DNA from: Anaerolineales bacterium
GTDB taxonomy: Bacteria > Chloroflexota > Anaerolineae > Anaerolineales > UBA11858
Assembly (NCBI GenBank): GCA_049644685.1
Contig: JBARSJ010000071.1
Location: 35,829-99,828, forward strand
Reading direction: 5' to 3'
DNA length: 64,000 bases
Part shown: positions 43,253-58,970 of the stretch, one piece after another
How positions within the stretch are numbered: the first letter of the stretch is position 1
Layout of the letters: the number at the start of each line of letters is the position of its first letter
Made by a program: the position numbers and the translations under genes
The notes under the pieces: model-generated
Seen by the model: only the letters and a program-made list of their open reading frames with translations
The model's database searches: none
Told to the model about the DNA's origin: nothing

Positions 43253-43273
43253 CTCTGATTAAATAAGATTCTT

Positions 43274-43624
43274 GTGGAACGGAGATTTCGCCTAACAAGT
43301 TCAATTGAGATCATGCGGGTGCGGCGATCTGGAAAATCATATCCCCACCCGCTTCTTATTTTGATAATTCAGAAAGTGAACCACCCGCTCTCCCGATTTG
43401 CGGTCACAGCAGGGATTTCAGTAGGAAACGCAGTCAAGCGAAACAGAGCGAAACGGATTATCCGGGCAGCTTTGAGAGAGTTAATCCAGGATATTGAACC
43501 CGGATATAACGTAGTCTTAATTGCCAGGAAACCGCTAACGGAATCCAATTGCAGAGAAACGAAAGAATCGTTAGAATCTCTTTTCAGGAAAGCTGAAATA
43601 TTTCTAACTCAAACCAATGAATAA
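43274..43624 (+). CDS. rnpA: ribonuclease P protein component
   Basis: Follows rpmH; [17 protein letters not shown]...[15 protein letters not shown] (RNR motif region); GTG start. Confidence 0.85.
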
Positions 43625-43922
43625 TGAGATCAGCATAAAACAAGCCGAACAGCACCATTCACCCCAGGATCCTCTCCTAAAAGATCTTGAGCTGACAATC
43701 TGGACGGTATTTAGATTCCCAGTTCTGGCTTTAATTCTTCTCTATCAGAAGACCTTATCCAGAGCTTTGCCCGGTAATACCTGCAAGTATTACCCCAGCT
43801 GCTCACATTATTCATACCAGGCAATCTACAAATACGGAGTACTCCGGGGCGCGCTGATGGGGAGCTGGCGAATTCTTCGCTGCAATCCTTTTTCCCAAGG
43901 AGGAATTGACCCTGTTCCGTAA
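43617..43922 (+). CDS. yidD: membrane protein insertion efficiency factor YidD
   Basis: YQKTLS...[19 protein letters not shown]...RILRCNPF...GGIDPVP. Confidence 0.85.
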
Positions 43923-43937
43923 ATTAACCAGCAGAAA

Positions 43938-45029
43938 GTGAATATGAAAACAATGAAAAAATATTTCCTAATCCTACTCTTAGCCCTGATTGTCATCTCG
44001 TTGAGCGCCTGCACAGGCCGGCGCGTCGCAGCAACTGGATGGTCCGAGATCACCCTCAAAGAGGATATCGTTTATTTCTCTTATGGTCCCCAGGTTTATG
44101 CGCTCAATGTGAAAACCGGGGCACAACAATGGGTATACCCTGTAGAAACGGAAACCGGCGTAGATTTTTATGCGGCGCCTGTGTTTGCTGATAATGAGAC
44201 CCAGTTGATTGTTGCCAGTTATGACAGCAATCTTTACAGTATTGATCCAGCTACAGGCAGAGAAAATTGGTCGTTTACCAATGCTGAAAACCGCTACGTC
44301 GCGGCTCCCCTGGTCACTGAGAGGGGAATATTCGCCCCATCATCTGACAGCAAACTCTACGGTGTAGATTTAAACGGAATCCCGCTCTGGGAGCCATTCG
44401 AAACCGGAGAACCAATTTGGGCTTCTCCTGCCTGGTCTGAAAGCTGTGGATGCATTTATCTGGCATCAATGGATCACATCCTTTATGCCATCAGCCCAGA
44501 AACAGGTTCTCTTCTGTGGAAAACTGAGGATCTAGGCGGACCCATAGTCAGCCAACCTGCAGTATCGGAGGAAAGCGGACTGGTTATCGTCAGCACGTTT
44601 AACAATGAGATCGTTGCCCTGGATGAGAAAAGCCACAGGGTTGTATGGCGATATAATACTTCAGATTGGGCCTGGGCAAGCCCGATGATTGACGGGGAAC
44701 AGGTTTATATCAGTGACCTTTCCGGCACTTTTTACGCCCTGGAATTGGAAACAGGAAATCTGCTCTGGCAGCTGCAGCCCGGCGGAAGTATAGTTTCAGC
44801 TCCGCTGGTACAGGATGGACAAATCTATTTTTCCACCGATGCCAGCAGCCTGGTGGTTGTCAGTACGGATGGTGTTGTGCAGCGCAATCTGCCCATCGAA
44901 GGCAAACTGTACTCCAGCCCTGCATCGAACGGAGATATCATCCTGCTTGCTCCCTCAGAAGCGGAATTCTTCCTGATCGCGCTCAATCAGAATGGAACCC
45001 AAATCTGGGAATATCCCCAGGCTGAATAA
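43938..45029 (+). CDS. PQQ-like beta-propeller repeat lipoprotein
   Basis: Lipobox LSAC; repeated ...LYA(L/I)...TG...LW... blades (8 or so). Confidence 0.8.
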   Translation: MNMKTMKKYFLILLLALIVISLSACTGRRVAATGWSEITLKEDIVYFSYGPQVYALNVKTGAQQWVYPVETETGVDFYAAPVFADNETQLIVASYDSNLYSIDPATGRENWSFTNAENRYVAAPLVTERGIFAPSSDSKLYGVDLNGIPLWEPFETGEPIWASPAWSESCGCIYLASMDHILYAISPETGSLLWKTEDLGGPIVSQPAVSEESGLVIVSTFNNEIVALDEKSHRVVWRYNTSDWAWASPMIDGEQVYISDLSGTFYALELETGNLLWQLQPGGSIVSAPLVQDGQIYFSTDASSLVVVSTDGVVQRNLPIEGKLYSSPASNGDIILLAPSEAEFFLIALNQNGTQIWEYPQAE

Positions 45030-45085
45030 GAAGAGGACCTAAAACAGATCCTGGATTCTTACAACTAACAAACAGGAAAAAATAT

Positions 45086-45847
45086 ATGTGGGATACCTTT
45101 ATTACCTTAATGATTACCGTATTGCTTTTCATCTATGATTTTGTCGGTCAGAATTTCGGCTGGGCAATCATTATTTTCACCGTTTTGGTCCGGGTTGTGA
45201 CCTATCCCCTAACCGCCAAGCAGATGAAAAGCAGCAAAGCCATGCAGGAATTGCAAGGTTCAAAAAAATGGAATGATATCCAGAAGAAATACAAGGGTGA
45301 CAAGGAAGCACTGGCTCAAAAACAAATGGAAATCTACAAGGAGATGGGAATCAGCCCCTTTGGTTCCTGTCTGCCGTTATTGGTCCAATTTCCAGTTATC
45401 ATCGGACTCTACCAGGCAATCATCCGCGCCCTGGCAGTGACGCCAATCCAGCTGGTTAATCTTTCCAAGCATATCAGCAATGGCGCTGACTTGATTCCGA
45501 TCCACAGTCAATTCTGGTGGATGGACCTCAGCGAACCAGAACGGCTGACCATGTTCGGAGTTGCTGTTCCGATACTTGCAATCCTGGTCGTTATCACATC
45601 ATATATTCAGACCAAGATGGTCACTCCGCCCACACAGGGAACCGCTGACGCTGGCGGTCAGGGCGCCCAGATGACCAAGGCAATGAGCCTTTATATGCCC
45701 TTCTTTATGGGATACTTGGCGCTGACTTTTGCCTCCGGGCTGGCTTTATATTTCATCGCAACCAATCTCGCCACCATCGCTCAATACGTTCTGACTGGTC
45801 AGGCGGATTTTAAGAACATTCTGCCAAAACTTCCAGCAAGGTCATAA
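45086..45847 (+). CDS. yidC: YidC/Oxa1-family membrane protein insertase (short form)
   Basis: GWAIIIFTVLVRVVTYPLTAKQMKS, GCLPLLVQFPVIIGLY motifs; rnpA-yidD-yidC context. Confidence 0.9.
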   Translation: MWDTFITLMITVLLFIYDFVGQNFGWAIIIFTVLVRVVTYPLTAKQMKSSKAMQELQGSKKWNDIQKKYKGDKEALAQKQMEIYKEMGISPFGSCLPLLVQFPVIIGLYQAIIRALAVTPIQLVNLSKHISNGADLIPIHSQFWWMDLSEPERLTMFGVAVPILAILVVITSYIQTKMVTPPTQGTADAGGQGAQMTKAMSLYMPFFMGYLALTFASGLALYFIATNLATIAQYVLTGQADFKNILPKLPARS

Positions 45848-45896
45848 CAGTTAAGCCGTTATACCTAAAATGGAATGATGGCACCTATGAGGTATT

Positions 45897-46607
45897 ATGA
45901 AAAACAATCGCGCAACCCTCGAAGTTATTGCTCAGACTGTAGAAGAAGCAATCGAAAAGGGAATAAAAGATTTAGGATTACCACGCGAAGCGGTAGAGAT
46001 AACCGTACTGGACGAAGGCGGACAGGGGATCCTGGGGATAGGGGCCAGGCAGGCCCGGGTCCGGATCTCCATTCTCAACGATGTTGAGGAAGTGCAGGCA
46101 GAAGAAAGCCCTTCCCAGACTCCAGCATCCGAGGAAGATTCAACCTTAAGACTTACAGAAGAAATTGTTTCAGAATTACTTGAGAAAATGAATTTAACGG
46201 CGAAGGTTGTCGCAAAGTATGGTGAAGAAAGCGAAAAATTGCCGTTCCGACCTATCCTGGTTGATGTCTCAGGAAATGATTTGAGCATTCTAATTGGTCA
46301 TCGGGCGAAAACATTAAATGCCTTGCAGTACATCACCCGATTAATCCTGGGTAAGGAACTTGAACATGGAATCCCGCTCAGCATTGACGTGGAAGGATAC
46401 CGGGAAAGGCGAGAGATGCAGGTCCGGCAGTTAGCCAGCCGGGTTGCCGAACAGGTAATGGACACAAACCGTGAACAGGCGCTTGAACCCATGCCGCCCA
46501 ATGAACGCCGATTTGCTCACATAGAACTTCAGGACAATTCCTCAGTTTACACAGAAAGTGTCGGCAAGGAACCTTACCGGAAAGTCGTCATTCATCCCGC
46601 TGAATAA
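45897..46607 (+). CDS. jag: Jag-family RNA-binding protein (KH + R3H domains)
   Basis: N-terminal Jag_N, GHRAKTLNALQY (KH GxxG-like), C-terminal R3H region ERRFAHIEL. Confidence 0.85.
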   Translation: MKNNRATLEVIAQTVEEAIEKGIKDLGLPREAVEITVLDEGGQGILGIGARQARVRISILNDVEEVQAEESPSQTPASEEDSTLRLTEEIVSELLEKMNLTAKVVAKYGEESEKLPFRPILVDVSGNDLSILIGHRAKTLNALQYITRLILGKELEHGIPLSIDVEGYRERREMQVRQLASRVAEQVMDTNREQALEPMPPNERRFAHIELQDNSSVYTESVGKEPYRKVVIHPAE

Positions 46608-46630
46608 ACTTGGCAGGACAATAAAACCAA

Positions 46631-46667
46631 CTGGCAGGGAATAAGTCCCCGTGCCAGTTTTTTTTTC
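46631..46667 (+). terminator. terminator after jag
   Basis: CTGGCAGGG-aataagt-CCCCGTGCCAG (one bulge) followed by T9. Confidence 0.6.
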
Positions 46668-46697
46668 TGAATTTTCGCTTTCAGGTATAATTCCACC

Positions 46698-47546
46698 ATG
46701 AACCTCCAACCGGGGAAGACAGCCGTTGATTATCTAATAGTCGGTCATATTACCCGGGATATCATAGAAAAAGGGTTCAGACTGGGAGGCACAGCCGTAT
46801 ACAGCGGGATACTCGCAAAAAGAATGGGCTTGAATGTGGGGCTGGTCACCTCTTATAATGAGGAAACCCCGGTTGAACCGCTGAACGGGATTCAGATTAT
46901 CAACCAGCGGGCGAAGAGGACAACAACCTTCAAAAACAACTATACTCCCTCCGGCAGGGAGCAATTCATTCTTGAGAGAGCCAAACCTTTAGGTTTGAAC
47001 CAAATCCCGGCAGAATGGCGGGTAGCTAAAATTGTTCACCTGGGCCCGGTTGCCCGCGAAATCAGCCTGGAAATCGGGTTTAATTTTCCAGGTGCAGCCC
47101 TGTGCTTTTCTCTCCAGGGCTGGCTGAGAGAATGGGATCGGAAAGGATTAATTCAACCTTCACCTTTCCCCAAGATGAATAATTCCTTTGCAGAGAACAC
47201 GGCCGCATTTCTGAGCATTGAGGATCTGGGATTCAACCGGTCATTAATCGATCCGCTTCGCTCTCTTTTTCCCCTGCTGGTCCTCACCAAGGGGAATACC
47301 GGGGCAGAGATTTTTTGGCAGGAAAAGACCATTTCCATCCCTGTTAAGCCGAAGGATGAGGTGGATCCAACCGGAGCTGGTGATATATTTGCGGCAGCAT
47401 TTATGATAAATTATGTGCTTAAGGGAAAAAAACTGCTTGAATCTGCGCAAACCGCTTCAGCGCTGGCAGCGATCTCTGTCACCCGACCGGGGATCGAGGG
47501 AATTCCCACAGCGGCAGAGATACAATCCATTCAAGAGGTTCACTGA
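46698..47546 (+). CDS. PfkB-family carbohydrate/nucleoside kinase
   Basis: GGTAVYSG N-terminal motif and DPTGAGDIFAAAF PfkB signature 2. Confidence 0.8.
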   Translation: MNLQPGKTAVDYLIVGHITRDIIEKGFRLGGTAVYSGILAKRMGLNVGLVTSYNEETPVEPLNGIQIINQRAKRTTTFKNNYTPSGREQFILERAKPLGLNQIPAEWRVAKIVHLGPVAREISLEIGFNFPGAALCFSLQGWLREWDRKGLIQPSPFPKMNNSFAENTAAFLSIEDLGFNRSLIDPLRSLFPLLVLTKGNTGAEIFWQEKTISIPVKPKDEVDPTGAGDIFAAAFMINYVLKGKKLLESAQTASALAAISVTRPGIEGIPTAAEIQSIQEVH

Positions 47547-47549
47547 GAT

Positions 47550-48335
47550 ATGGGATTAATTTATACAATTGCCAATCAAAAAGGCGGTGTCGGTAAAACG
47601 ACATCAACGATCAACCTGGGCGCTTTTTTAGCCTATTATGGTAAAAAAGTCCTGCTGGTAGACATTGACCCGCAGGCTAACGCCACCTCCTCGCTGGGAA
47701 TTGACAAGAAAAATACCGCGGGAGGAACCTATGAAGCAATACTGGAAGAAAAAAATATCCGGGATTATATCCTGCACAATCCAAAACTAAGGCTTTCTAT
47801 CCTGCCGGCTTCCCCGGATCTGGCCGGAGCAGAAATTGAGCTGGTGAATGAGGTCGGCCGGGAAACTTTATTAAAGAGAAAACTACTTCCCCTGGCAGAA
47901 GAATACGATTATATCCTGGTGGACTGCCCTCCTTCACTGGGACTGCTCACCCTGAATGGAATAGTAGCCGCTGTGAATGGTATCCTGATTCCTGTGCAGT
48001 GTGAATACCTGGCAATGGAGGGTTTGGGAGACCTGGTCACGACCATCGAGAGGGTTCGCCGGGTGATCTCTCCCGACTTGATTATCCGCGGGGTAATCCT
48101 GACCATGTTTGATGCCCGAACCAACCTGGCCAATGATGTGGTATTGGAAGTGAAAAAACATTTCGAGGAGCAAGTCTTTAACACCATCGTTCCCCGCAGC
48201 ATCCGTCTGGCTGAGGCGCCATCTTATGGCGTCCCGATTTCTCTCTATTCTCCAGGTTCAATCGGGGCCAATGCTTATCAAGAATTGGCAAAGGAAATTC
48301 TGCTGGGAGATGGTCACCAGCTTCCTGAGGTATAA
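47550..48335 (+). CDS. parA: chromosome partitioning ATPase ParA/Soj
   Basis: Deviant Walker A NQKGGVGKTT, DIDPQANAT, VDCPPSLG. Confidence 0.93.
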   Translation: MGLIYTIANQKGGVGKTTSTINLGAFLAYYGKKVLLVDIDPQANATSSLGIDKKNTAGGTYEAILEEKNIRDYILHNPKLRLSILPASPDLAGAEIELVNEVGRETLLKRKLLPLAEEYDYILVDCPPSLGLLTLNGIVAAVNGILIPVQCEYLAMEGLGDLVTTIERVRRVISPDLIIRGVILTMFDARTNLANDVVLEVKKHFEEQVFNTIVPRSIRLAEAPSYGVPISLYSPGSIGANAYQELAKEILLGDGHQLPEV

Positions 48336-48399
48336 TAAGTTCAGATAAAAATAAAGTTCAGATAAATCAATGTAACCAGGGAAAAACCTTCAAAAACAT

Positions 48400-49281
48400 A
48401 TGGCAGCCAAACGACCCGGCCTGGGAAAAGGCCTTGATGCACTCATTCCTATCCATCCTGATGGGGAAATCTTATCCGAATTTGGCGGAGTTCTGGAAGT
48501 TCCGCTGGAGTTGATCGCAGCCAATCCTCATCAACCCCGGAGAGGTTTTGACGAAGACAAATTAAAGGAACTGGCCGCATCCATCAAGGAGCACGGCATC
48601 ATTCAGCCGTTGGTTTTATCAGCCCAAGACCCAGCTGTGAAATCAGATCAAAAATATGCCGTGATTGCCGGTGAACGGCGTTTAAGGGCAGCAAAACTAG
48701 CTGGATTATCGACCGTGCCGGCCATCCTGCGGGAAGCGGACAGCCAGGATCATCTAGTGGTGGCATTAATTGAAAATGTCCAACGAGCAGATCTCAACCC
48801 TCTGGAAGCCGCATCCGCCTACCAAAGCCTCTCGGTTGAGTTTGGCCTCTCCCATGAAGAAATTTCGAAACGGGTGGGCAAAAGCAGAACTGCCGTCACC
48901 AACACTATACGTCTGTTAGATCTGCCCGATGTAGTCCAGCAGGCAGTGCGGAAAAACCAGGTCAGCATGGGTCATGCCCGGGCGCTGCTGGCGCTGCCAA
49001 ATATCAAAGCTCAGAGTTCCGCCCTGCAGACCATCCTGACCCAAGAACTAAATGTGCGGCAGACGGAAGCGCTGGTTAATAAATTCAAGGGTAAAAAGCA
49101 GCCCAAACCTCCCAAAAAGGACACCAAGTCACCTGAGCTTAAATCTCTTGAAGAGGAATTGCAGTCCTCGCTGGGAACAAAAGTCCGCCTGACGCGGAGT
49201 AAAAGCGGCAAGGGAACCATTACCATTCATTATTATTCGGATGAAGAATTCAATACCTTGATCGACCGCTTCCGGAAATAA
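48400..49281 (+). CDS. parB: chromosome partitioning protein ParB/Spo0J
   Basis: NPHQPRR, GIIQPLV, IAGERRLRAAKLAG (ParB box), HTH region, follows parA. Confidence 0.93.
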   Translation: MAAKRPGLGKGLDALIPIHPDGEILSEFGGVLEVPLELIAANPHQPRRGFDEDKLKELAASIKEHGIIQPLVLSAQDPAVKSDQKYAVIAGERRLRAAKLAGLSTVPAILREADSQDHLVVALIENVQRADLNPLEAASAYQSLSVEFGLSHEEISKRVGKSRTAVTNTIRLLDLPDVVQQAVRKNQVSMGHARALLALPNIKAQSSALQTILTQELNVRQTEALVNKFKGKKQPKPPKKDTKSPELKSLEEELQSSLGTKVRLTRSKSGKGTITIHYYSDEEFNTLIDRFRK

Positions 49282-49318
49282 TTAACACCCTGGCTATTCC
49301 CCTCAATTATTAAAACTG

Positions 49319-50896
49319 ATGGAATCTTTCCAGCTGACCAATGCCTGCATCTATACCATGGATCCCCGGCAGCCGCTGGTTTCTTCCCTGGTCTGCCGCA
49401 GCGGAAAGGTGGAACGGGTTCTCGCTGAAGACCCTCTGGATTCCGAAAATTCCCTTGATCTTGGAGGACGGATCGTTCTGCCCGGATTGATCGATGCCCA
49501 TCTGCATCTGAGGCAGTATGCAGAGAGCCTTCAATATATTGATTGTGAGACCAGGACCAAAGAGGAGTGCCTGGAGAAAGTCGCGGAACGGGCTGCCCTT
49601 ACTCAGCCCGGCGAATGGATTCGAGGACACGGCTGGAATCACAATTATTGGTCCGATGGCTATGGCACAGCAGCAGAACTGGATCAAATTTCCCCTCACA
49701 ACCCAGTCTACCTGACCGGTAAATCCCTTCATGTATCCTGGGCTAATTCCGCAGCGCTTAAAATCGCCGGAATCGGGGCCCAGACACTTGATCCGCCTCG
49801 GGGAACCCTGCTAAGGAATGAAAATGGAAGCCCTACAGGAATTCTGTTTGAAGAAGCAGTTAAACTGATTGAAAAAGTCATCCCATCCCCGAGCGTCGAA
49901 GCTGCCGCGGAAGGCATCCGGAAAGCCCAGGAAGAATTATGGAAAATGGGGATCAGTGGAGTTCACGATTTTGACCGCGAGCTTTGTTATCATGCCCTGC
50001 AGTACCTGGCAGACAGAGAGCAGCTTAAACTCAGGGTACAAAAAAGCATCCCCGCAAAATATTTACCAACAGCTATTGAGCTGGGATTAAGAACTGGATT
50101 CGGAACCGATTGGTTGTGGATTGGGGGAGTGAAGGATTTCGCGGATGGCGCTCTGGGTCCGCAAACAGCTGCCATGCTGGAACCTTATCAAGGATCAAGC
50201 ACTAACAGGGGCATGCCGCTGTTAACAGAAGATAAACTGCTTGAATTGGGCATCAGGGCAGCGCTGGGCGGATTTTCCCTGGCAATCCATGCCATCGGTG
50301 ACCAGGCAAACCGGACTGTGCTGAATGCCCTGGAAAAAATTCGGGATTATGAACGGGAACAGGGTATCAATCCCCTACCGCACCGGATTGAACACCTCCA
50401 GCTTCTTGATCCAGAAGATGTTCCCCGCCTGGCTGGACTAAACATCACTGCCTCCATGCAGCCGATCCATGCCACTTCGGATATGGAGATGGCGGATAAA
50501 TACTGGGGGAAAAGGACCTCTTATTCTTATGCTTCCCAGCTGCAGTTTCAGCAGGGCGCACGGGTAGTGTTTGGATCGGATGCCCCGGTAGACAGCCCCA
50601 ATCCATTCTGGAGCATTCACGCCGCAGTGACCCGCCGGAAAGCCGACGGATTCCCGGGTCCGAACGGCTGGCATCCGGAGCTGCGTGTTCCGCTTGGCAA
50701 AGCCCTGGAAGCTTACACAATTGGACCGGCTGCCGCAGGGGGAAAATCCGGTCAACAAGGCAGCCTTGCACCAGGATACTGGGCTGACTTGATTGTGCTG
50801 GAAAAAGACCCCTTCAGCTGTTCTGAGGATGAATTGAGGGAGTTAAGACCCTCGGCGACGATGATCGGCGGCGAGTGGGTCTGGCGGGAATTCTGA
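49319..50896 (+). CDS. amidohydrolase-family (Amidohydro_3 / YtcJ-like) metal-dependent hydrolase
   Basis: PGLIDAHLHL metal-binding HxH, AIHAIGD, IEHLQL, FGSDAPV. Confidence 0.85.
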   Translation: MESFQLTNACIYTMDPRQPLVSSLVCRSGKVERVLAEDPLDSENSLDLGGRIVLPGLIDAHLHLRQYAESLQYIDCETRTKEECLEKVAERAALTQPGEWIRGHGWNHNYWSDGYGTAAELDQISPHNPVYLTGKSLHVSWANSAALKIAGIGAQTLDPPRGTLLRNENGSPTGILFEEAVKLIEKVIPSPSVEAAAEGIRKAQEELWKMGISGVHDFDRELCYHALQYLADREQLKLRVQKSIPAKYLPTAIELGLRTGFGTDWLWIGGVKDFADGALGPQTAAMLEPYQGSSTNRGMPLLTEDKLLELGIRAALGGFSLAIHAIGDQANRTVLNALEKIRDYEREQGINPLPHRIEHLQLLDPEDVPRLAGLNITASMQPIHATSDMEMADKYWGKRTSYSYASQLQFQQGARVVFGSDAPVDSPNPFWSIHAAVTRRKADGFPGPNGWHPELRVPLGKALEAYTIGPAAAGGKSGQQGSLAPGYWADLIVLEKDPFSCSEDELRELRPSATMIGGEWVWREF

Positions 50897-51050
50897 AAAT
50901 CCAACAATCCTCACTATTTATTAATTACTGTCCTTCATCTCCCAGTCCCCCAGTCACCTGTCCTGAGTAGCGCGACAGAGGAGCGCGTATCGAAGGGCTC
51001 AGTCCCAATTTCACACCCTTTCTCCCTCCGGCGTATCCAGCCGGTCCTCA

Positions 51051-51209
51051 CTATTTACTACTTACTGAATACTGATTACGGGGATGGCATTTTTCATGGA
51101 AGAGAATGAATCGTCTGATCCAGCTGGAATAAGCCTGTTCGGTACGGTAGGCGTAATTTTTTCGGCGGATGGTATCCCGTACCTGGTCAAGCAGTTTCTT
51201 TTTGGTCAT
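51051..51209 (-). pseudogene. intI: integron integrase (IntI) remnant: N-terminal ~43 codons only
   Basis: Not in ORF track. My translation: MTKKKLLDQVRDTIRRKNYAYRTEQAYSSWIRRFILFHEKCHP|RNQYSVSSK*. The part before | matches the IntI N-terminal SAM-like domain (IntI1 [38 protein letters not shown]); RBS AAGGGGG. Confidence 0.8.
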
Positions 51210-51223
51210 CAAACCCCCTTAGA

Positions 51224-51251
51224 TTGTGAAAAGTTGCTGTTATGCTATACT
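51224..51251 (+). promoter_or_regulatory. candidate cassette promoter (Pc-like)
   Basis: TTGTGA (51224-51229) - 16 nt - TATACT (51246-51251), pointing into the cassette array just outside the intI start. Confidence 0.35.
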
Positions 51252-51293
51252 TTGATTATATACTACTCAACAAGGAGAAAACACTGTACTGCG

Positions 51294-51379
51294 CGATAAC
51301 ACAATAATATATTACATACCAATAGTAGGATAACAACCTAATGTGTTATCCCGCAGGTGAAACATAATTAACGTTAGGC
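51294..51379 (+). other. candidate attI region ending in core site GTTAGGC
   Basis: GTTAGGC at 51373-51379; core-like GTTATC boxes at 51294-51300 (inverted), 51328-51334 (inverted), 51345-51351 (direct); GGATAACA-n8-TGTTATCC inverted repeat 51328-51351. Confidence 0.55.
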
Positions 51380-51401
51380 AGCCATTCGATCGGGGATAAG
51401 T

Positions 51402-52064
51402 ATGTCACAGATACTACGAATTCTAATCTACGTCATATTTGGGATCCCACTCATCTTAATCGTGCTGCATACGATAGTGCGAATCATCAGGCACTTTTAT
51501 AAGTTTCCAATGCCCGAATTCTTTGCCAATATCATCGACAATCCACTTCGCCGGCGAATCCAGCCCCCAAATAACACCCCTACCAGGCATAAGATTGAAC
51601 CAGGAATGAAAGTTTTGGAAGTAGGTCCAGGAAATGGAAGCTATACAATGGCAACTGCCCGTAGAGTTGGGGAGAATGGAAAAGTCATAACAATAGATAT
51701 CGAACCGAAGATGATTGATCGAGTTATGAAGAGAGCCCAAATTGAGGGTATTAAGAATATAGAGGCTCGCGTTGCGAATGTATTTGACCTTCCTTTCGAA
51801 GATGGTTATTTCGATGCAGTTTATATGATTACTGTGATTGGTGAGATCCCCACTCCAGAGAGAGCGATGAGAGAGTTCTATCGGGTTTTATCGCCGCAAG
51901 GCACATTGTCATTCAGTGAACTATTAATGGATCCTGATTATCCGCTCGCAGGTTCGATCGAAAAAAATGCACATTCGGTCGGCTTCCGACTACAGGAAAA
52001 GGTCGGGAACTTCTTCCATTACACATTAATTTTCGAGAAGGATAATTTATTGAAAGCTGCCTAA
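51402..52064 (+). CDS. cassette 1: class I SAM-dependent methyltransferase with N-terminal TM helix
   Basis: VLEVGPGNGSYT (motif I), ITIDIEP, FDAVYM; stop TAA lies inside the attC R'' box GCCTAAC. Confidence 0.85.
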   Translation: MSQILRILIYVIFGIPLILIVLHTIVRIIRHFYKFPMPEFFANIIDNPLRRRIQPPNNTPTRHKIEPGMKVLEVGPGNGSYTMATARRVGENGKVITIDIEPKMIDRVMKRAQIEGIKNIEARVANVFDLPFEDGYFDAVYMITVIGEIPTPERAMREFYRVLSPQGTLSFSELLMDPDYPLAGSIEKNAHSVGFRLQEKVGNFFHYTLIFEKDNLLKAA

Positions 52065-52153
52065 CCCCCGCTTCACCCGACAGCCGGTTAGGGCGCCCAG
52101 AGTTAGAGAACTGGAAAGGAAGACCCGGCTGCGGGTGAGCTCATCCGTTATGC
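52059..52153 (+). other. attC site 1 (95 bp)
   Basis: R'' GCCTAAC ... R' GTTATGC; arms CACCCGACAGCCGG / CCGGCTGCGGGTG pair leaving an unpaired A. Confidence 0.85.
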
Positions 52154-52162
52154 TAAATCCGA

Positions 52163-52570
52163 GTGCTTGGAATGCAAATCTTTACAATGACTGATATTAC
52201 GATGAAGAAAGAGAAAAAATATTCACCGAGTGGCATTATTACTATTACATTACTGCTTTCTCTCGCAGTGGTCAATGCTTTTTGGTTAATCGCAAGTTGG
52301 CATGGTGGTGCTTTGATAGCCCTGGCATTCTATTTAGTAATATCTTATCTTTGCCTCAGAAGGCAACATTTCCAAGCAGGTGTAATCGCGGGTATCCTCG
52401 GATTTGGAATTCATATATATGAGTTATTTGTACTGGGGACGAGTGAATTGATAGGAATTGATCAAGTTTACTTCTACGTGAATCTGATTCTTCCTATTCC
52501 TCTCACTATCACAAGTTATTTGGCATCTCACAAGGAATCTGCTGGACATGAAGAGAAAACAAATTCTTAA
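52163..52570 (+). CDS. cassette 2: small 4-TM membrane protein, unknown function
   Basis: Hydrophobic helices; start uncertain (GTG 52163, ATG 52172/52187/52202). Confidence 0.6.
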   Translation: MLGMQIFTMTDITMKKEKKYSPSGIITITLLLSLAVVNAFWLIASWHGGALIALAFYLVISYLCLRRQHFQAGVIAGILGFGIHIYELFVLGTSELIGIDQVYFYVNLILPIPLTITSYLASHKESAGHEEKTNS

Positions 52571-52583
52571 ACTGAGAGATTAC

Positions 52584-52669
52584 GCATAACCCACGCTCCA
52601 CCCGAACCTTCGATACGCCCATTCGCTACTCTCAGGGCTTCTCAGGACGGGTGAGCTTTTCCGTTAGCC
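52584..52669 (+). other. attC site 2 (86 bp)
   Basis: R'' GCATAAC (reverse complement of cassette-2 start GTTATGC) ... R' GTTAGCC; loop consists of a CCTTCG...CTCAGGAC element. Confidence 0.8.
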
Positions 52670-52713
52670 AGCATAATAGCTCATATATCTGACCAATATA
52701 GGAGGAGGAATTC

Positions 52714-53394
52714 ATGCTTACAAACAGTCAGCTGATCAGAATAATTTCCCTCTTTTCCTTGCTTGTGTGTTTGCCCTTCATCACCGCTTGTTCAAACGCT
52801 GAGCAGGATCTCCCCCTGGAGCGGGTATCCCTGTCGAAACACGCTTGCATAAGTGGTAGCAGCTTTACCCCACACCTGCCATTAGGCGTCAATGATCAAA
52901 TCAAGGCACCGGCTCTCGCCGGAGGTACTGTCAGGTCCGGTGATTTCCTGATTTCACTCTGGTTAATTTGCGATCCATCCCTTGCCTCAGATGACCCGGA
53001 TTTCCCAGAATACTCATGGCAAGAGTTCAGCGAAGTGCGGTATCTGGGCTTCCTTTCTGGTTGGGAGTATTTAGGGGACCCCCCGGACCAGGAGATCAAG
53101 GAATCTTTGACAATCAATGGGGAGGTCATAAGTGGGCACATAATCGCATCTCACACCGACCCTGAAAGAAGCTTGTCTAGAGGCGAGGGGCATGCAAGTT
53201 ATGGTCCGATCAACACCGAAAACCAAATCGTTGCCCAGGCCCTTGCCGCTGGAGAACCCGTTGATATCGTACTTACTATCTTTGGTTCTAAAACCCTTGC
53301 CGAAGTGCACCTGCGCGCATCGTTTGAGGAAACGCCGGATGGCTACCGCCTTCTCAGTGCCGAGATCCTGACGAACACTGGAAAACTACCATAA
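52714..53394 (+). CDS. cassette 3: lipoprotein of unknown function
   Basis: Signal peptide plus lipobox LPFITAC; RBS GGAGGAGG. Confidence 0.7.
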   Translation: MLTNSQLIRIISLFSLLVCLPFITACSNAEQDLPLERVSLSKHACISGSSFTPHLPLGVNDQIKAPALAGGTVRSGDFLISLWLICDPSLASDDPDFPEYSWQEFSEVRYLGFLSGWEYLGDPPDQEIKESLTINGEVISGHIIASHTDPERSLSRGEGHASYGPINTENQIVAQALAAGEPVDIVLTIFGSKTLAEVHLRASFEETPDGYRLLSAEILTNTGKLP

Positions 53395-53552
53395 TTGATA
53401 ACAGGAGGGCTTTACCGCCATGTTGATTGGGTATACCTACCATCACTTGATCGGGTATCATTCCCCATAATTATTGGTGCCCCGGTGTTTTACAATCTTC
53501 TCTTACCGCTGTTTTCTTTTTCCTTAATGGTCTCCCGTTTTATCTGAATGCG

Positions 53553-53652
53553 GGCTAACCCCCGCTCCACCCGACAGCCAGGGGCGGACCGGGGACCGAA
53601 AACGGAAGACCGGGAAAAACAATCTGGCTGCGGGTGAGCTATTCCGTTGGGC
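53553..53652 (+). other. attC site 3 (100 bp)
   Basis: R'' GGCTAAC (reverse complement of cassette-3 start GTTAGCC) ... R' GTTGGGC; arms CACCCGACAGCCAG / CTGGCTGCGGGTG. Confidence 0.85.
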
Positions 53653-53737
53653 GGCTGCGTTGCATGGTCAAGCTTCGAGAGAGCCAAAATAGTTGAGCAA
53701 TATACAGATGGCAGTCACAGCAGGAGGTCATGATCTG

Positions 53738-54397
53738 ATGAAATCAAATGTTGAGATAATCCAAGATATCGTTGAGCAGGTCGTTAATCAAAAGAAAATC
53801 GATATATATGACCAGTACATCAGCGAGGATTACATCTCGCGAGGATCTCCATATGTCGGTATGGGTTTTTCTGTAGACAGCTCAGGGAATAAGCACATCA
53901 TTGAAATCATTGTCCCTGGCAGCCCTGCCGAGGGGAAGCTCCAGGTGGGAGACGAGCTGCTCTGGGCAGAGGATGAACACCAGCGTTGGGTCACTTATGA
54001 GGATATAAAGCAGCGTATTTTGCAGAGTTATCGGGGCAACAAATACAAGGTGGGAGTACGTCGGGGTAATCAGACTCTCGAGGGTGAATTGACCAAAGAT
54101 TTATTCAAGGGCTTCGATACCCCCAAGGATCAGGCAAAGTCGGATCTGCGGGAGTTTATGACGAAAGAATTTCCAGATTTAAAAGCCACCATAAAGCAAA
54201 TTCTCGCAGATGGGGATATGGTTGTTTGTTTGCTGGAGTATCGCGGTAACCACGCTAACTTCGAGCGAGAGGCAGTTTGGCGAGAGGCCTGGTTTGTACG
54301 CCTGTCTGAAGGGAAAATCGTCGAGGACTGGACTGTTTTTGATGGAACTTCCTACTTTAATCAGCTTGGCTTCCAGATCATTCCGCCTAGCACCTGA
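53738..54397 (+). CDS. cassette 4: SnoaL/ester-cyclase-like protein with PDZ-like insertion
   Basis: ATG 53738 sits 10 nt after AGGAGG (ORF track starts at TTG 53693); NVEIIQDIVEQV... and DMVVCLLEYRGNH...GKIVEDWTVFD flank VPGSPAEGKLQVGDELL. Confidence 0.65.
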   Translation: MKSNVEIIQDIVEQVVNQKKIDIYDQYISEDYISRGSPYVGMGFSVDSSGNKHIIEIIVPGSPAEGKLQVGDELLWAEDEHQRWVTYEDIKQRILQSYRGNKYKVGVRRGNQTLEGELTKDLFKGFDTPKDQAKSDLREFMTKEFPDLKATIKQILADGDMVVCLLEYRGNHANFEREAVWREAWFVRLSEGKIVEDWTVFDGTSYFNQLGFQIIPPST

Positions 54398-54489
54398 TAC
54401 ATCTCGAATTTAAGATCTTTTCCTGCGATCGATTTTGGTATGTTGCAGGAAGAATGGGAAAATAGGATTTGAAAATAGTACTAAACGCC

Positions 54490-54615
54490 GCCCAACCACG
54501 CGTTAACGCTGACCCGGTTGTCGCCACGCTCCAGCCTGCTAGGTCTCGCGTAAAATCTTTTCGTCGTGCGGGGTTTAGAAGTCAAACCGCTGGGTAGGTT
54601 ACGCAAATGTTGGGT
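54490..54615 (+). other. attC site 4 (126 bp), divergent sequence class
   Basis: GCCGCCCAAC is the exact reverse complement of cassette-4 start GTTGGGCGGC; R' GTTGGGT; arms GCGTTAACGCTGACCC / GGGTAGGTTACGC with unpaired T and G. Confidence 0.75.
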
Positions 54616-54666
54616 TGCAGAAAATCAAAGATCACATTTAGAACATCAAAGTCATAAGGAGCATCA

Positions 54667-55578
54667 ATGTGCACATGTGAGAAATCGAAGATTGTATTTG
54701 ATACGACCACGTTAGAGAAGATAGTCAATGATCCCCAATGGGTTCTTGAAAATGAAGAGAAATTTTGGGCTGAGTACCGAGCTCAGATATTGACACGTAA
54801 ATGGGCAGAACATGTCAAATATGAAATTCCATACGAAGAATGGAGAGAGAAGATTGAAGGGTGGAAAAACTTATCGCTAGATGAACGAGAAAACCATGAA
54901 TTAATGAAGGTCGCCCAGCGGATACTATCAGCAAAAGATGAGTTTCTAGAGAAAGCATTGCCGCATGATTGTTCATTTTTGCCGGATGGCGTTGATTTGA
55001 GCGTAACAGTGCAGTTCACAGCATTTGTTCCACCATTTGCGTTTGCGATGGAAGACCTTGTAATCGATGTGGCCTCGAAGTATTGGAAAGGTAATCCAGA
55101 ACATGTATTGAATTTGCTTGTTCATGAAATATTTCATGTGGGTTACAGTTATTATCTAACAATACAAAATGAAAAGGAATTAGTTGAAGAAAGTTTATAT
55201 AAAATTCTGGACAATATTGTGAATGAAGGAATATGCACATATGTAGGGTATTGTGCTTTGCCAATCTTTCCAGTAGAAGATGAGCGGGATTATCGAATGC
55301 TGGAATATAATGATGAAGTTCACAGGTTGTTTGCGGATACGAATACTGTACTTTCGCAATATGGCATATTATCTGATGAAGAATTACAAAAACTATCTTG
55401 GGATAAGGGTGTCATTGGACGGGCATATTACGTAACAGGTGCCCATATGTGCAAAACAATTGATGAGACTAAGGGCAGAGATGCATTGATTGAAGTTTAC
55501 TCAAAAGGACCAATCTCAATTATTGAATATTACAACACAGTTGCAAATGATGATCTGAAAATATTACTTCCTGAATGA
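54667..55578 (+). CDS. cassette 5: putative HExxH zinc-peptidase-like protein (DUF2268-like)
   Basis: LLVHEIFHVGY motif; RBS AAGGAG; family assignment tentative. Confidence 0.6.
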   Translation: MCTCEKSKIVFDTTTLEKIVNDPQWVLENEEKFWAEYRAQILTRKWAEHVKYEIPYEEWREKIEGWKNLSLDERENHELMKVAQRILSAKDEFLEKALPHDCSFLPDGVDLSVTVQFTAFVPPFAFAMEDLVIDVASKYWKGNPEHVLNLLVHEIFHVGYSYYLTIQNEKELVEESLYKILDNIVNEGICTYVGYCALPIFPVEDERDYRMLEYNDEVHRLFADTNTVLSQYGILSDEELQKLSWDKGVIGRAYYVTGAHMCKTIDETKGRDALIEVYSKGPISIIEYYNTVANDDLKILLPE

Positions 55579-55591
55579 TAAGACAAGTGCA

Positions 55592-55722
55592 ACCCAACCC
55601 TCCATGTAGCCGACCCAGCGGGGCTGGGATGGTGAGCGTGGCGAAAATTGCACTCGAAGGTTCTAGATTACAATATTCGGGATTGAAAATCCCCGCTGGA
55701 TCGGCTAATGAAATCGTTATGC
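55592..55722 (+). other. attC site 5 (131 bp), divergent sequence class
   Basis: GCAACCCAAC is the exact reverse complement of cassette-5 start GTTGGGTTGC; R' GTTATGC; arms CATGTAGCCGACCCAGCGGGG / CCCCGCTGGATCGGCTAATG with unpaired G. Confidence 0.75.
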
Positions 55723-55748
55723 GGTAAAAAGTTTTATCTAGGTAAAAA

Positions 55749-57053
55749 ATGGTTAAGAAAAATGTAATTAATATCTTTTGCTTGGTCCTTGTTCTTTCAA
55801 GCTGCTCACCAGTCGACAAACATAACCCCGATCAGCCAAGCACAGAAGAACGTATCGATGATCTTTTCACTCGCTATACCAATGCAGGTGAGTTTTCTGG
55901 CTCCATCCTAGTCGCTAAAGGAGATCAAGTTCTCTTTAGGAATGGCTATGGTTTTACGGATCGGGAAGAACAAATTCCCAATACCCCAGATACACAGTTT
56001 AGTATCCAATCAATTACTAAACTTTTCACCTATGCCTCTGTAATGATGGAAGTTAAAGCAGACCATATTTCACTAAATGACCCAGTTGAGCAATATTTCC
56101 CCGGTTTTCCCAATGGTGACAAGATCACGATTGACCACCTCCTCCACCATCGGTCGGGACTCTTCCATTACCCTCATGAAGTACCCGATCATGAATACGG
56201 ATCACTCTCGACCCCCATCACAATCAATGCTCTGATCAAAGAATTCGAAGGCTATCCGTTGAAGTTTGAGCCTGGAGAACAATACGGATACAGCAACGCA
56301 GGCTACTCTATACTGGCGAGAGTAGTTGAGAATCTGAACGATACACCTTTTGACGAGTACCTTGAGGCAAAACTCTTCGCTCCCACGGGAATGCACCAGA
56401 CTACAGCTGATTGGGAAACAGCCTCTCAGGATATTGCAATAGGGTACGAGAAAGTGGATGGTGAGTTCATTCGCAGCTCAGCCGATCACCCATCCCACTT
56501 CATTGGGTCCGGAACAACCTACACCACGATTGACGATATGTATAGCTGGTACAAAGCCGTTTATATCAACGGCTCGATGTCTGAATTCTCATCTGGGGGA
56601 GGAGATGGTGGCGGGATGGGATACCGAGCTATATTCTGGCCTATACCCTCCTTCGATCTGGTAATCATTATCCTGAGTAACTATCGGGATGCACCTGTTT
56701 ATGAGCTTGTAACTGAGGTGGTTGATATTCTGTTAGAAGAGACCACATTCATTGATCATGATCCAAAAACCTTGGAAGCTTTAATTGGTCACTACATGGC
56801 TGATTCGGGTTATGGAGTATTCAACTACCGGATTTATGGATCAAATGAAAAATTATTTGTGTCAGTCACCGATTTCCTTGGTGTATCACGCGTCTATGAA
56901 CTCCGCCCCATCTCACCAAATCAACTCGCATTCTTGACGGATGGACGGCTCACGGGCCAAACGCTCACATTCAAATGGGGGGAAGATGCCAATTCTCACG
57001 AGTTTCTGTTCGACATGAACTTATTGCAGTTGAAGGCCATACGCGATGATTAA
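55749..57053 (+). CDS. cassette 6: beta-lactamase-fold serine hydrolase (class C/PBP-like) lipoprotein
   Basis: Lipobox VLSSC; SxxK (SITK), YxN (YSN); 434 aa. Confidence 0.8.
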   Translation: MVKKNVINIFCLVLVLSSCSPVDKHNPDQPSTEERIDDLFTRYTNAGEFSGSILVAKGDQVLFRNGYGFTDREEQIPNTPDTQFSIQSITKLFTYASVMMEVKADHISLNDPVEQYFPGFPNGDKITIDHLLHHRSGLFHYPHEVPDHEYGSLSTPITINALIKEFEGYPLKFEPGEQYGYSNAGYSILARVVENLNDTPFDEYLEAKLFAPTGMHQTTADWETASQDIAIGYEKVDGEFIRSSADHPSHFIGSGTTYTTIDDMYSWYKAVYINGSMSEFSSGGGDGGGMGYRAIFWPIPSFDLVIIILSNYRDAPVYELVTEVVDILLEETTFIDHDPKTLEALIGHYMADSGYGVFNYRIYGSNEKLFVSVTDFLGVSRVYELRPISPNQLAFLTDGRLTGQTLTFKWGEDANSHEFLFDMNLLQLKAIRDD

Positions 57054-57118
57054 TATTGGGATAGATTGGTTGCGATTGATCAAGTTTTGATACTGTTATT
57101 AATTGTAAGAATTCGACC

Positions 57119-57244
57119 GCTTAACCCCCGCTCCACCTGACTGCCGGTTTTTTACTGTTATCCCGCTTTTATTCCCCCTTATCGGTTTCAGTTCTATAAT
57201 CAATACCAGAAACACCTGGCAGCAGGTGAGCTCATCCGTTATAA
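57119..57244 (+). other. attC site 6 (126 bp)
   Basis: ACCGCTTAAC vs expected ACCGCATAAC (9/10 to cassette-6 start); R' GTTATAA; arms CACCTGACTGCCGG / CCTGGCAGCAGGTG. Confidence 0.8.
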
Positions 57245-57283
57245 AGCAATTAGGAATACGGCTAACTCCATGGAGGTAAATTC

Positions 57284-58108
57284 GTGGATACAAAGAACGT
57301 TACCCTTCTACTATTCTCCCTCTTCTTCCTTTGCAGTGCCTGTCAAAACACTTTACCTGAACCCAATCCAACCCAAACCATTTCTTTGACACCTATCGAT
57401 TCTCCCATCCCAACACAGGTGAAACCAACAGCTGTCCCGGAATCAGAAGTAATCCCAATCAATGAAGACTGGAATGTATATAAAAATCACCGTTTGGGAT
57501 TTTCAATCAAGATCCCAGCCAACCCGATCTGGAGCAGTGGTGCTCAATGTTCAGAGTTAAATTTACCAGAAGAAGGCTTTTTACCAGTTGCCGTCATTGA
57601 AAGAGAAGATCGGATTTACATCACCACAGAAACAGCTCTTCAGTTCCCATATTCAGAACGGGAGGAGTCCCTCGAGGTTAAGCCCGCCAGGGGAGAGAAT
57701 TGTGAGATTGTTAAAGTTACCCTGGAACTCCTCGAAAACGAAGATTATTTTCCTTTGGATCTCTGGGAAATTGCTATCAAACCAATAATGTCAGAAAATG
57801 ATCTCGAGTTTTTCGTAGACGAATATTACGGTGATTGCTATTATGTAACAGAAAAAACTCCCCTGAGCGACAGGGGATTAATAAAAGTAAAAATCAGTGG
57901 TAATGAAGATCCTAATGTAGATCCTGACGCTACCTGCGTGGTGCGCTGGGGTTATCTCTATTATTATTCAGTGGAGTTCTCAAGAGCTGCCACATGGATG
58001 TTCGGCCAGAGCTTGCATTTTTGCGCCAGCGGAGCCAACCAGGATTGTTATGATAACGATATGCTGCGCAGCTTTGAGTTCATTCCTGTCATATATCCAC
58101 CGGAATAA
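57284..58108 (+). CDS. cassette 7: Cys-containing lipoprotein of unknown function
   Basis: GTG start 7 nt after GGAGGT; lipobox FLCSAC. Confidence 0.7.
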   Translation: MDTKNVTLLLFSLFFLCSACQNTLPEPNPTQTISLTPIDSPIPTQVKPTAVPESEVIPINEDWNVYKNHRLGFSIKIPANPIWSSGAQCSELNLPEEGFLPVAVIEREDRIYITTETALQFPYSEREESLEVKPARGENCEIVKVTLELLENEDYFPLDLWEIAIKPIMSENDLEFFVDEYYGDCYYVTEKTPLSDRGLIKVKISGNEDPNVDPDATCVVRWGYLYYYSVEFSRAATWMFGQSLHFCASGANQDCYDNDMLRSFEFIPVIYPPE

Positions 58109-58112
58109 TGTT

Positions 58113-58277
58113 TTATAACCCCCGCTCCACCCGACAGCCAGGTTGGATGGCAATTATAATGGGATGGGCATTAAATCTTTAATAACAAGACCAGCAGACT
58201 TTTTGTTTTATACTGATTAAGGGCTGCGGGTGCCCTTCGCTGTACTCAGGATGCTTCGCGAAGCTCATCCGTTAGGC
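58113..58277 (+). other. attC site 7 (165 bp) with nested 29-nt insert
   Basis: R'' TTATAAC ... R' GTTAGGC; GGGTG[CCCTTCGCTGTACTCAGGATGCTTCGCGA]AGCTCATCC. Confidence 0.8.
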
Positions 58278-58440
58278 TTTTTTTTTAATAATCATTGTTT
58301 GGCCTTTGGATCATGTGGGTTATGCAGAAACTATAAACGATGTGATTGTCAGTCACAATAAGACAAGTTGAAACAATAAAAGTATAATGCCATCACCATT
58401 CACAAGTTCGATATGAAAAATCTATTTAGGAGAATAATCA

Positions 58441-58779
58441 ATGGAAAGTTCTAATAAAACAAACCATCTGGCAATTGTTAGTTTTGTTAGTGGGATGATA
58501 GCCCTCATATGTATTGTGTTAATATTTGTATTTTACAACTCGGCAGAAACCGCAGAGGGCATCATCAACATCACAGATGGAATAATAATGCCTGTGCGAA
58601 ATCTCTGTGTGATAGTGACGCTATTAACGGGTATTCTTGCGGTTAAAGATATAAAGAAAACGGGCGGAACTAAAAAAGGAAAAATATTTTCCTGGTTCGG
58701 CATAGTTGTTGGAGCTGGCTGGATCCTCTTTGGATTGCTTGTTGGCATAACATTTCTCATAGCTGAAATTCTTCACTGA
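58441..58779 (+). CDS. cassette 8: small 3-TM membrane protein (DUF4190-like)
   Basis: RBS AGGAG; HLAIVSFVSGMIALICIVLIF-type helices. Confidence 0.6.
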   Translation: MESSNKTNHLAIVSFVSGMIALICIVLIFVFYNSAETAEGIINITDGIIMPVRNLCVIVTLLTGILAVKDIKKTGGTKKGKIFSWFGIVVGAGWILFGLLVGITFLIAEILH

Positions 58780-58812
58780 ATCCTTAAGCTGAGAATAGAA
58801 TCGCCAAGAGCC

Positions 58813-58967
58813 ACCTTACTCCCGCTCCACTAGACAGCAAGATGGACGCTGCGCTCACGACAGGGGTAAAGAGACGGAAGACGGGAGACCGGAGGTCGCT
58901 TCGCTTCCGACCGGGTAGACTGATACTGATACTTAGATCCTTCTGCGAGTGAGTTCATCCGGTAGGC
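58813..58967 (+). other. attC site 8 (155 bp), both core boxes mutated
   Basis: ACCTTAC in place of RYYYAAC and GGTAGGC in place of GTTRRRY; internal blocks CCCGCTCCAC...GAGTTCATCC conserved. Confidence 0.65.
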
Positions 58968-58970
58968 ACT

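Follow-up and report, generated by a model that had tools for sequence, protein, structure and literature searches.

Does the gene cassette array at this locus still possess an integrase and, if not, what was lost, how and when? In the 64,000-nucleotide stretch of DNA analysed here (hereafter the window), the array lies next to a short open reading frame (ORF) that begins as an integron integrase gene (intI) and ends soon after its 43rd recognisable codon. From the evidence presented below we propose, with a probability of about 0.85, that this stub is a non-functional relic of the intI gene of a sedentary chromosomal integron of an uncultured Anaerolineales. The coordinates of the features are collected in Table 1, and the loci and proteins used for comparison are designated by L and P numbers, respectively.

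Table 1. Features of the integron locus, with positions counted along the window.
Feature	Position	Strand	Basis or remark
parA	47550-48335		upstream of the amidohydrolase gene, with pfkB, jag and yidC
parB	48400-49281		upstream of the amidohydrolase gene, with pfkB, jag and yidC
Amidohydrolase gene, convergent with intI	49319-50896	+	named from the Pfam labels of its near-identical or syntenic counterparts in L001, L003 and L092
GACTGGG-type heptamers GGAGATGAAGGACA, then tail GTAATTAATAAATAGTGAGGA	50908-50956	minus	original intI 3' flank
Small repeat element GAGCCCTTCGATACGCGCTCCTCTGTCGCGCTACTCAGGACAGG	50957-51003	minus	in L096 and L097, follows the intI stop immediately
Probable degenerate last ~8 codons and stop region of intI, GTGAGGACCGGCTGGATACGCCGGAGGGAGA	51018-51052	minus	L094 alignment
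28-nt heptamer filler GTAATCAGTATTCAGTAAGTAGTAAATA	51053-51080	minus	direct repeats D9 and D12; supplies nine unrelated codons
intI stub ORF, MTKKKLLDQVRDTIRRKNYAYRTEQAYSSWIRRFILFHEKCHP then RNQYSVSSK and stop	51051-51212 (TTG) or 51051-51209 (ATG)	minus	52/53 aa
intI codons 1-43, N-terminal half of the SAM-like domain	51081-51209	minus	PF13495, TIGR02249, alignments
intI-attI intergenic region	51213-51372		Pc-like site, minus-strand TATAAT, inverted repeat I12
Pc-like site TTGTGA-16-TGcTATACT	51224-51251	+	promoter scan; extended -10, sigma-70-like
TATAAT	51256-51261	minus	intergenic region
attI core ATAATTAACGTTAGGC (also ATAATTAACGTTAGG)	51366-51379	+	crossover GTTAGGC 51373-51379; start of cassette 1
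Cassette array, 13 same-strand ORFs	51373-64000	+	repeat families D1-D8, motif positions, folding, Pfam
attC sites (approximate)	52059-52153, 52584-52669, 53553-53652, 57119-57244, 58113-58277, 58813-58967, 59562-59802, 60765-60924, 61398-61600	+	
attC site	R'' at 62202	+	R' not placed
attC site	63928	+	runs off the window
Divergent attC candidates	54489-54616, ~55600-55710		
Small element copies	50962-50996, 52607-52646, 58233-58261, 59710-59780, 60860-60905 (inverted), 61556-61584, 62217-62234, 62372-62399		
Heptamer tracts	50908-51080, 58871-58894, 58919-58933, 60798-60827, 61512-61542, 62321-62347		

Identity of the stub

The stub was assigned to IntI from the following lines of evidence. 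First, it matches the Pfam profile PF13495 (Phage_int_SAM_4) with E=1.2e-12, above the Pfam cut-off, over profile positions 1-39 out of 85, i.e. over less than half of the domain, as well as the NCBIfam integron integrase models TIGR02249 (E=6.6e-10; 38.8 bits for a cut-off of 265; model positions 1-40 out of 315) and NF011946 (E=3.3e-10). Second, it aligns with the IntI sequences of L003 (74% amino-acid identity), L007, L087, L088 and L089. Third, it stands in the canonical divergent orientation beside an attI core and an attC/cassette array. An identical 52-aa protein is recorded in the database as 'MAG: phage integrase N-terminal SAM-like domain-containing protein [Anaerolineales bacterium]'. 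The preliminary description of this DNA, made from the letters alone, had assigned the ORF to the N-terminal SAM-like domain of IntI and proposed profile searches of the region; both the ORF and the assignment held up, and the 71-aa antisense ORF that it had reported at 51084-51299 was found as well.

The nucleotide homology with orthologous intI genes ends at 51080-51082, and a TAG stop codon (51053-51051) follows nine unrelated codons further on, in agreement with the earlier placement of the break at about 51081, ahead of a TACTGAT-type tract with a stop nine codons on. A tblastn search of the 64-kb window with a full-length orthologue retrieved the stub (E=2e-21) and no other IntI-like segment (next best E=0.43). 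IntI residues 51-320 had no match anywhere in the window, which means that the catalytic R...HxxR...Y motifs are missing; the HxLRHSFATH, LLGH and Y motifs are present in the intI genes of L003, L094, L096 and L097. The stub is the only IntI-homologous coding sequence left in the window, and no second intI occurs there (the search covered 64 kb of a 102.8-kb contig). It gives no full-length TIGR02249 match above the curated cut-off and it has no IntI-specific additional domain. In short, the stub derives from IntI but is no longer an IntI, and no functional integrase is encoded in cis.

The platform and its cassette array

Between the stub and the array, a promoter scan predicted a Pc-like site. 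By number it does not exceed chance (one found as compared to 1.6 expected in the region), but its -10 box falls within a motif that is conserved in all alleles of the locus. This motif, TATAAT-N4-AGTATAGCATA on the intI strand, occurs in L003, L007, L008, L087, L088, L089, L099 and L100. Within it, the extended -10 box (TGcTATACT, plus strand) and the minus-strand TATAAT lie 4 nt apart, an arrangement that suggests that the Pc and intI promoters are placed face to face (51224-51261). An 18-nt inverted repeat (CTGCGCGATAACACAATA at 51289-51306 and TAATGTGTTATCCCGCAG at 51339-51356) lies between the promoter motif and attI, and GATAAC/GTTATC-type repeats lie at the same place in L087, L089, L092 and L003; such repeats near attI could be binding sites for the integrase or for a regulator. 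In class 1 integrons Pc lies inside intI. A Pc within the stub, considered as a reason for its persistence, was rejected because the promoter-like site is intergenic, at least 12 nt upstream of the start codon, and because L099 has the motif without any intI codon.

Next to intI, on its upstream side, a site whose crossover lies at a GTT was identified by sequence as the attI of this integron. Its core is common to eight loci (including L003, L007, L008, L087, L089, L092 and L099). In five of the six aligned relatives the homology with the window ends at 51375-51378 (at 51385 in L003), and beyond this point the first cassettes differ. On the other side of intI, the amidohydrolase gene shares 85-91% nucleotide identity across clade A and provides a core-genome anchor of conserved position. 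The integron adjoins origin-proximal genes (rpmH in L003, then yidC, jag, parA and parB; window 42000-51400), and the cumulative GC skew has its minimum at ~42-46 kb of the window. If the replication origin lies there, the cassettes would be co-oriented with replication and the attC bottom strands would be on the leading-strand template.

The array spans at least 12 kb and continues past the window end, so that the number of attC sites, at least 11, is a lower bound. These sites belong to a family of the form GCCTAAC-CCCCGCT-...-GAGCTCATCC-GTTAGGC, with RYYYAAC...GTTRRRY ends and co-oriented ORFs, which is 74-80% identical to that of L094, L096 and L097. In four of the five sites tested, the bottom strand takes up the structure expected of attC, in which the R boxes pair, the L stem has a bulge and the loop is variable (z between -1.6 and -3.2). 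Both sequence and folding thus indicate cassettes that each end in an attC site. The fifth site tested, a divergent candidate (54487-54618, GCCCAAC...GTTGGGT), is doubtful, as it folds no better than shuffled sequences (z=+0.8). The 3.5-kb interval 53653-57119 comprises three ORFs and no attC of the main family, with a 17-nt inverted repeat at ~55600-55710. The cassette products include methyltransferases, SnoaL-like, DUF5700 and beta-lactamase-family proteins, and a member of the F420H2-dependent quinone-reductase family (PF04075); several others matched nothing in Pfam.

Two kinds of repeats are shared by the array and the 3' flank of intI. A small element of ~30-45 nt, CCCTTCG-N-CTCAGGA, sometimes nested, occurs eight times in the window (0.24 expected), and in the integron only. 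In three attC sites it precisely separates the L' box (GCGGGTG) from the spacer AGCTCATCC-GTTAGGC; the attC sites with an insertion are 58113-58277, 59562-59802, 61398-61600 and 60765-60924. Judging from its position, the element should disturb the R-L geometry of attC, and sites with such L'-R' insertions may be inactive; the insertions may reflect either a relaxed constraint on the array or the architecture of a subfamily. Tandem heptamers (GAGACGG, ACTGAT(A), CTATTTA, TACTGAT) occur within the window only in the attC variable loops, where they bring the sites to 160-240 nt, and in the 3' flank of intI. In another locus, L019, a heptamer tract of ~200 nt lies directly 3' of intI.

Anatomy of the junction

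The alignment with the relatives that retain a full intI (L003, L094, L096 and L097), which the preliminary description had proposed, defines the part that was lost. In the intact alleles, read on the intI strand, the stop codon is followed by the small element (GAGCCCTTCG...CTCAGGACAGG; L096 and L097), G-rich heptamers, the tail (GTAATCAGTAAGTAGTAAATAGT...) and a Phd-PIN toxin-antitoxin pair, beyond which come more repeats, among them the small element twice again, and then the amidohydrolase gene. In the window, codon 43 (to 51081) is followed by the filler, by GTGAGGACCGGCTGGATACGCCGGAGGGAGA (from 51052 to ~51018), and then by the small element, the heptamers (50956-50931), the tail (50930-50908) and the amidohydrolase gene. 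As compared to the intact alleles, the window therefore lacks codons 44 to ~312 and the Phd/PIN pair and has gained the 28-nt filler; as compared to L003, 187 bp of the window (50893-51079) stand for 1766 bp that comprise intI codons 44-321 and the Phd/PIN pair.

The pieces of the junction can be traced to the original 3' flank. The filler repeats, at greater length, the tail at 50908-50930, and in the intact alleles the same tract (CTATTTACTACTTACTGATTAC, plus strand) lies 3' of intI, with G-rich heptamers between it and the stop codon. The small element is 92-95% identical to L096 5429-5500, 4360-4424 and 4416-4478 and to L097 6412-6467. The heptamers and tail, which now abut the amidohydrolase gene (its stop codon ends at 50896), are orthologous to L092 from 5175 on (91%), L003 1801-1871 and L087 352-427. 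A reading of the junction tract as a mobile element or MITE ending in AATAGTGAGGA found no support: the exact copies in the window are the two local ones only, a third match has one mismatch, the total of three is no more than chance (1.15 expected), and GTGAGGA is likewise present at the 3' end of intI.

The segment between the filler and the small element bears on the description of the deletion. From 51052 to ~51018, it aligns with the last eight codons and stop of the L094 intI (AGTGAGGAGCCCGCTGGATGAAGACTGAGGGGGAGA) with a score of 34, which none of 2000 shuffles reached, and this match at the 3' end is the best in the entire L094 intI gene. We lean towards the view that the event was an internal deletion of codons 44 to ~312, the last ~8 codons of intI having probably survived in degenerate form. 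The downstream tail probably served as template for the filler, and GTGAGGA, the 7 nt common to the end of the tail and to the 3' end of intI, may have been the right-hand microhomology. The loss of the Phd/PIN pair by recombination between small elements is plausible, since the pair is flanked in L096 by direct copies (92-95% identical).

A possible, though less probable, alternative is a plain 3' truncation, in which a single deletion ran past codon 43 into the downstream heptamers and the resemblance at 51018-51052 is due to chance. The match indeed fails to reach significance against L003 and is borderline for L096 and L097 (reached by 42 and 153 of 2000 shuffles, respectively), but against L094 it beats all 2000 shuffles and, being the best of the gene, falls exactly at its 3' end. 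Similarly, GTGAGGA also ends the tail at 50908-50914, and it occurs in L087 and L092 with no intI sequence, and the breaks of L087 and L092 do end within the downstream tract; in the window, however, the segment 51018-51052 is followed by the same small element that comes after the intI stop of L096 and L097. An internal deletion thus appears as the better description, and the earlier view of an integrase gene reduced to an N-terminal stub keeps its orthology and layout but probably not its plain 3' truncation, which gives way to an internal deletion with filler and loss of Phd/PIN. Likewise, the statement that no catalytic remnant exists between 50897 and 51080 is borne out by tblastn, with the amendment that 51018-51052 probably represents the degenerate last ~8 codons of the gene.

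The mechanism that we propose can be outlined as follows. At a fixed chromosomal site, convergent with the amidohydrolase gene and next to parB-parA-jag-yidC, a deletion would have removed intI codons 44 to ~312, and hence all catalytic motifs and the IntI-specific domain. The junction would have been filled by 28 nt copied from the heptamer tract 3' of intI, through template switching or microhomology at GTGAGGA, and the Phd/PIN pair would have been lost as well, in a repeat-mediated manner. The promoter region, attI and the cassette array would have been spared. As these are untouched, the proximal cassettes could still be transcribed.

Alleles of the locus

The closest relative of the stub among the returned proteins of 91 aa or fewer, P0002, led to L003, where the amidohydrolase-parB-parA-jag-yidC-rpmH flank is 88-90% identical in nucleotides. 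Its intI (785-1747) has 321 codons, every catalytic motif and two in-frame TGA codons, at codon 62 (R in the family) and codon 160 (the G of GKGxKDR). The L003 ORF pieces recur in four independent contigs (L003-L006), and this intI is either a very recent pseudogene or a gene expressed by read-through.

Further alleles were obtained by scanning metagenomes with the amidohydrolase gene as an anchor. L094, L096 and L097 harbour an intact intI of 320 aa, and the L094 and L096 proteins are bona fide integron integrases since they score 449 bits across the entire TIGR02249 model (positions 1-313 out of 315; cut-off 265). Other alleles are broken at various points. L100 keeps ~92 intI codons, then 44 nt, then the amidohydrolase gene; L092, L093 and L095 have 25-30 intI codons fused to GGGAGAC-type heptamers; and L099 has zero intI codons, with the promoter motif, attI core and attC sites kept. 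No integron was found at the locus in L098 and L102 by the same scan. Of the other relatives aligned, L087, from a sister strain, is 95% identical to the window over attI and the stub; its first cassette is different and its intI breaks ~8 nt earlier. The intI of L088 is truncated at about codon 48, and that of L089 has a TAG at codon 44.

The Phd/PIN pair lies between intI and the amidohydrolase gene, co-oriented with intI and outside the array, in L096 (4658-5325), L097 (5625-6292) and L003 (1959-2626), and in L094 (3131-3550) the PIN ORF alone was confirmed. None of the truncated alleles checked (window, L092, L095 and L100) has the pair. Just past attI, L094, an allele with an intact intI, also carries a 290-aa XerA/XerD-like tyrosine recombinase (5217-6089), which is ~30% identical to IntI and scores below every curated cut-off. 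In another lineage, P0028 (89 aa, from a 13.3-kb JGI contig) is an IntI with an in-frame internal deletion, in which the last 18 residues (IYTHVLNRGGRGVRSSLDR) follow straight after about residue 70 (HLAVDEQVAAA), the same architecture, N-terminus plus extreme C-terminus, as proposed for the window.

The same amidohydrolase/parB flank was found in 10 loci, which form two clades ~72% identical in the flank gene. The occurrence of the integron at the same position in related genomes and its homogeneous attC sites characterise it as a sedentary chromosomal integron; the literature threshold for this class is more than 19 attC sites, and the array of the window, with at least 11, runs off its end. 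In the GTDB species-representative genomes, none of 572 IntI relatives had the amidohydrolase/parB flank, and ~72 of the best 80 were intact.

These alleles also bear on the improbable proposal that the stub is kept by selection, either because longer deletions would harm the promoter or attI, or because the 52-aa peptide is active (DNA binding or integrase interference). The Pc-like -35 box is only ~12 nt from the start codon and the promoter motif is conserved in all alleles, but these include L099, which keeps the motif, attI and the array with zero intI codons, so that the stub is dispensable, and the predicted Pc lies outside the stub. The stub has retained its start codon, a Shine-Dalgarno-like AAGGGGG and the promoter motif, and the peptide may still be made; no function is suggested for it, however, as it spans less than half of a domain, its length varies between alleles (0, 25-30, ~41, 43 or ~92 codons) with unrelated C-terminal tails, and L099 does without it. 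We infer that the 52-aa product has no function. In addition, several unrelated genomes have stubs that break just after a conserved RHP, but this clustering is confounded by the 52-aa query, which returned only proteins of 91 aa or fewer and so biased the sample, and P0016 is a point-mutated gene next to which the rest of the sequence still lies. A deletion hot spot behind RHP likewise found no support, the break points at the locus ranging from 0 to 92 codons. A terminator-like hairpin on the plus strand of the stub (51133-51152) is no more than expected by chance (one found, 0.7 expected).

A rearrangement, in which a mobile element or an inversion split intI and left the catalytic half elsewhere in the genome, is very improbable. 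IS elements are known to fragment integrons (PMC4889954), and in L087 an IS-like transposase ORF, read from the sequence (465-944; 159 aa, cut by the contig end), lies directly past the heptamer tail. At the junction of the window, by contrast, there is no IS or transposase, no C-terminal fragment occurs in the 64 kb, the sequence on either side runs colinear with that of the intact alleles, and what is probably the 3' end of intI has stayed in place.

An assembly or binning artefact hiding an intact intI behind a chimeric or collapsed join at repeats, which the preliminary description had named as what would overturn it, has a negligible probability and is largely refuted: repeat-rich integron regions frequently suffer breaks and mis-joins in short-read metagenome assemblies, and L003, L094, L096 and L097 all end in or near arrays, but both flanks are colinear with the relatives, and the independent assemblies L001 (3407 bp, 99.6% identity) and L002 (2360 bp, 99.0%), from other samples and covering cassette 1, the stub, the filler and the amidohydrolase gene, span the junction without gaps, so that the break is real.

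Timing and independence of the losses

A neighbour-joining tree built on the amidohydrolase gene places L094, L096 and L097, all with intact intI, as sister to the window; L092/L095 and L003 stand on separate branches with lesions of their own, and L100 and L099 fall in the second clade. From this tree and the distinct lesions, at least three independent inactivations must have occurred in the clade of the window, and at least two in the other. The window and its sister strain L087 differ in their first cassette, for which a trans-acting integrase would have been needed if the truncation pre-dated their split, but their different break points argue for separate events.

Over the 43 codons, dN/dS is 0.14 between the window and L003, 0.09 with L088 and 0.06 with L089, within an overall range of 0.06-0.26 that includes pairs of dead genes; dS over these codons is 0.66-1.45, and that of the flank genes is 0.33-0.37. 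Such low dN/dS values (about 0.1) indicate that intI was constrained during most of the divergence time and that the losses are recent. Selection on the stub after the truncation was looked for in the sole close pair, window and L087, where two synonymous and two non-synonymous differences give no power. Together, these data look like ordinary integrase decay caught at several stages.

A broader proposal, which we regard as doubtful, is that integrase loss in this Anaerolineales lineage is repeat-driven and recurrent rather than haphazard. The heptamers and the CCCTTCG...CTCAGGA element would seed deletions from the 3' side of intI, thereby removing Phd/PIN, and the sparing of Pc, attI and the array would make this an in situ pathway from a complete integron to a CALIN, i.e. 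a cluster of attC sites without integron integrase.

Comparison with known systems

As it has no catalytic domain, the locus cannot by itself excise or capture cassettes; the excision, capture and shuffling of cassettes by an integrase encoded in cis would thus be lost, and the array should be immobile unless an integrase acts in trans. It is now, in operational terms, a CALIN with a cryptic N-terminal intI scar.

Chloroflexi are known to have integrons, and pseudogenes of intI have likewise been described (PMC4889954, PMC2426708). Among intI genes, about one in three is a pseudogene, and inactivation has often taken place separately in closely related lineages (PMC2426708). Like such pseudogenes (e.g. 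in Xanthomonas; Nemergut et al. 2008, PMC2426708), the locus studied here is fixed, bears independent and differing lesions, and retains its array. Unlike most of them, in which the gene with its stop codons or frameshifts is still recognisable, the window has lost ~84% of the gene, and its host is an uncultured Anaerolineales (Chloroflexota) instead of a proteobacterium. The persistence of the integron with an inactive integrase also recalls the class 2 integrons, the intI2 of which has an internal stop, so that recombination needs suppression or a trans-acting integrase (PMC2426708). L003, with its two in-frame TGA codons, is closer to intI2 than is the window allele. intI2 still has its whole length, and suppression of a single stop codon can restore its activity, whereas the window allele is beyond reactivation.

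CALINs may arise through integrase loss (PMC4889954), and the window resembles them as an attC array with no functional integrase nearby, a CALIN by the IntegronFinder categories. It differs from typical ones in having attI, the promoter region and an N-terminal scar, and in that intact orthologous alleles document its origin. The survey of Cury et al. 2016 screened for intI pseudogenes with intI_Cterm and PF00589, profiles of the C-terminal part, required more than 50% coverage, and found such genes near only 15 of 279 CALINs (PMC4889954); a scar that is N-terminal only would escape this screen. With an N-terminal profile added, the number of CALINs that arose in place could be re-estimated at little cost, and the repeat-driven loss considered above, if true, could explain part of the 95% of CALINs without a recognisable intI pseudogene.

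Decayed intI genes and integrase-less arrays are therefore known in kind, and what is added here is a series of alleles at a single locus. In this one Anaerolineales locus, intact, stop-mutated, 92-, 43-, ~30- and 0-codon intI alleles stand side by side with attI and the array retained, and they directly document the passage from a complete integron to an integrase-less cassette cluster.
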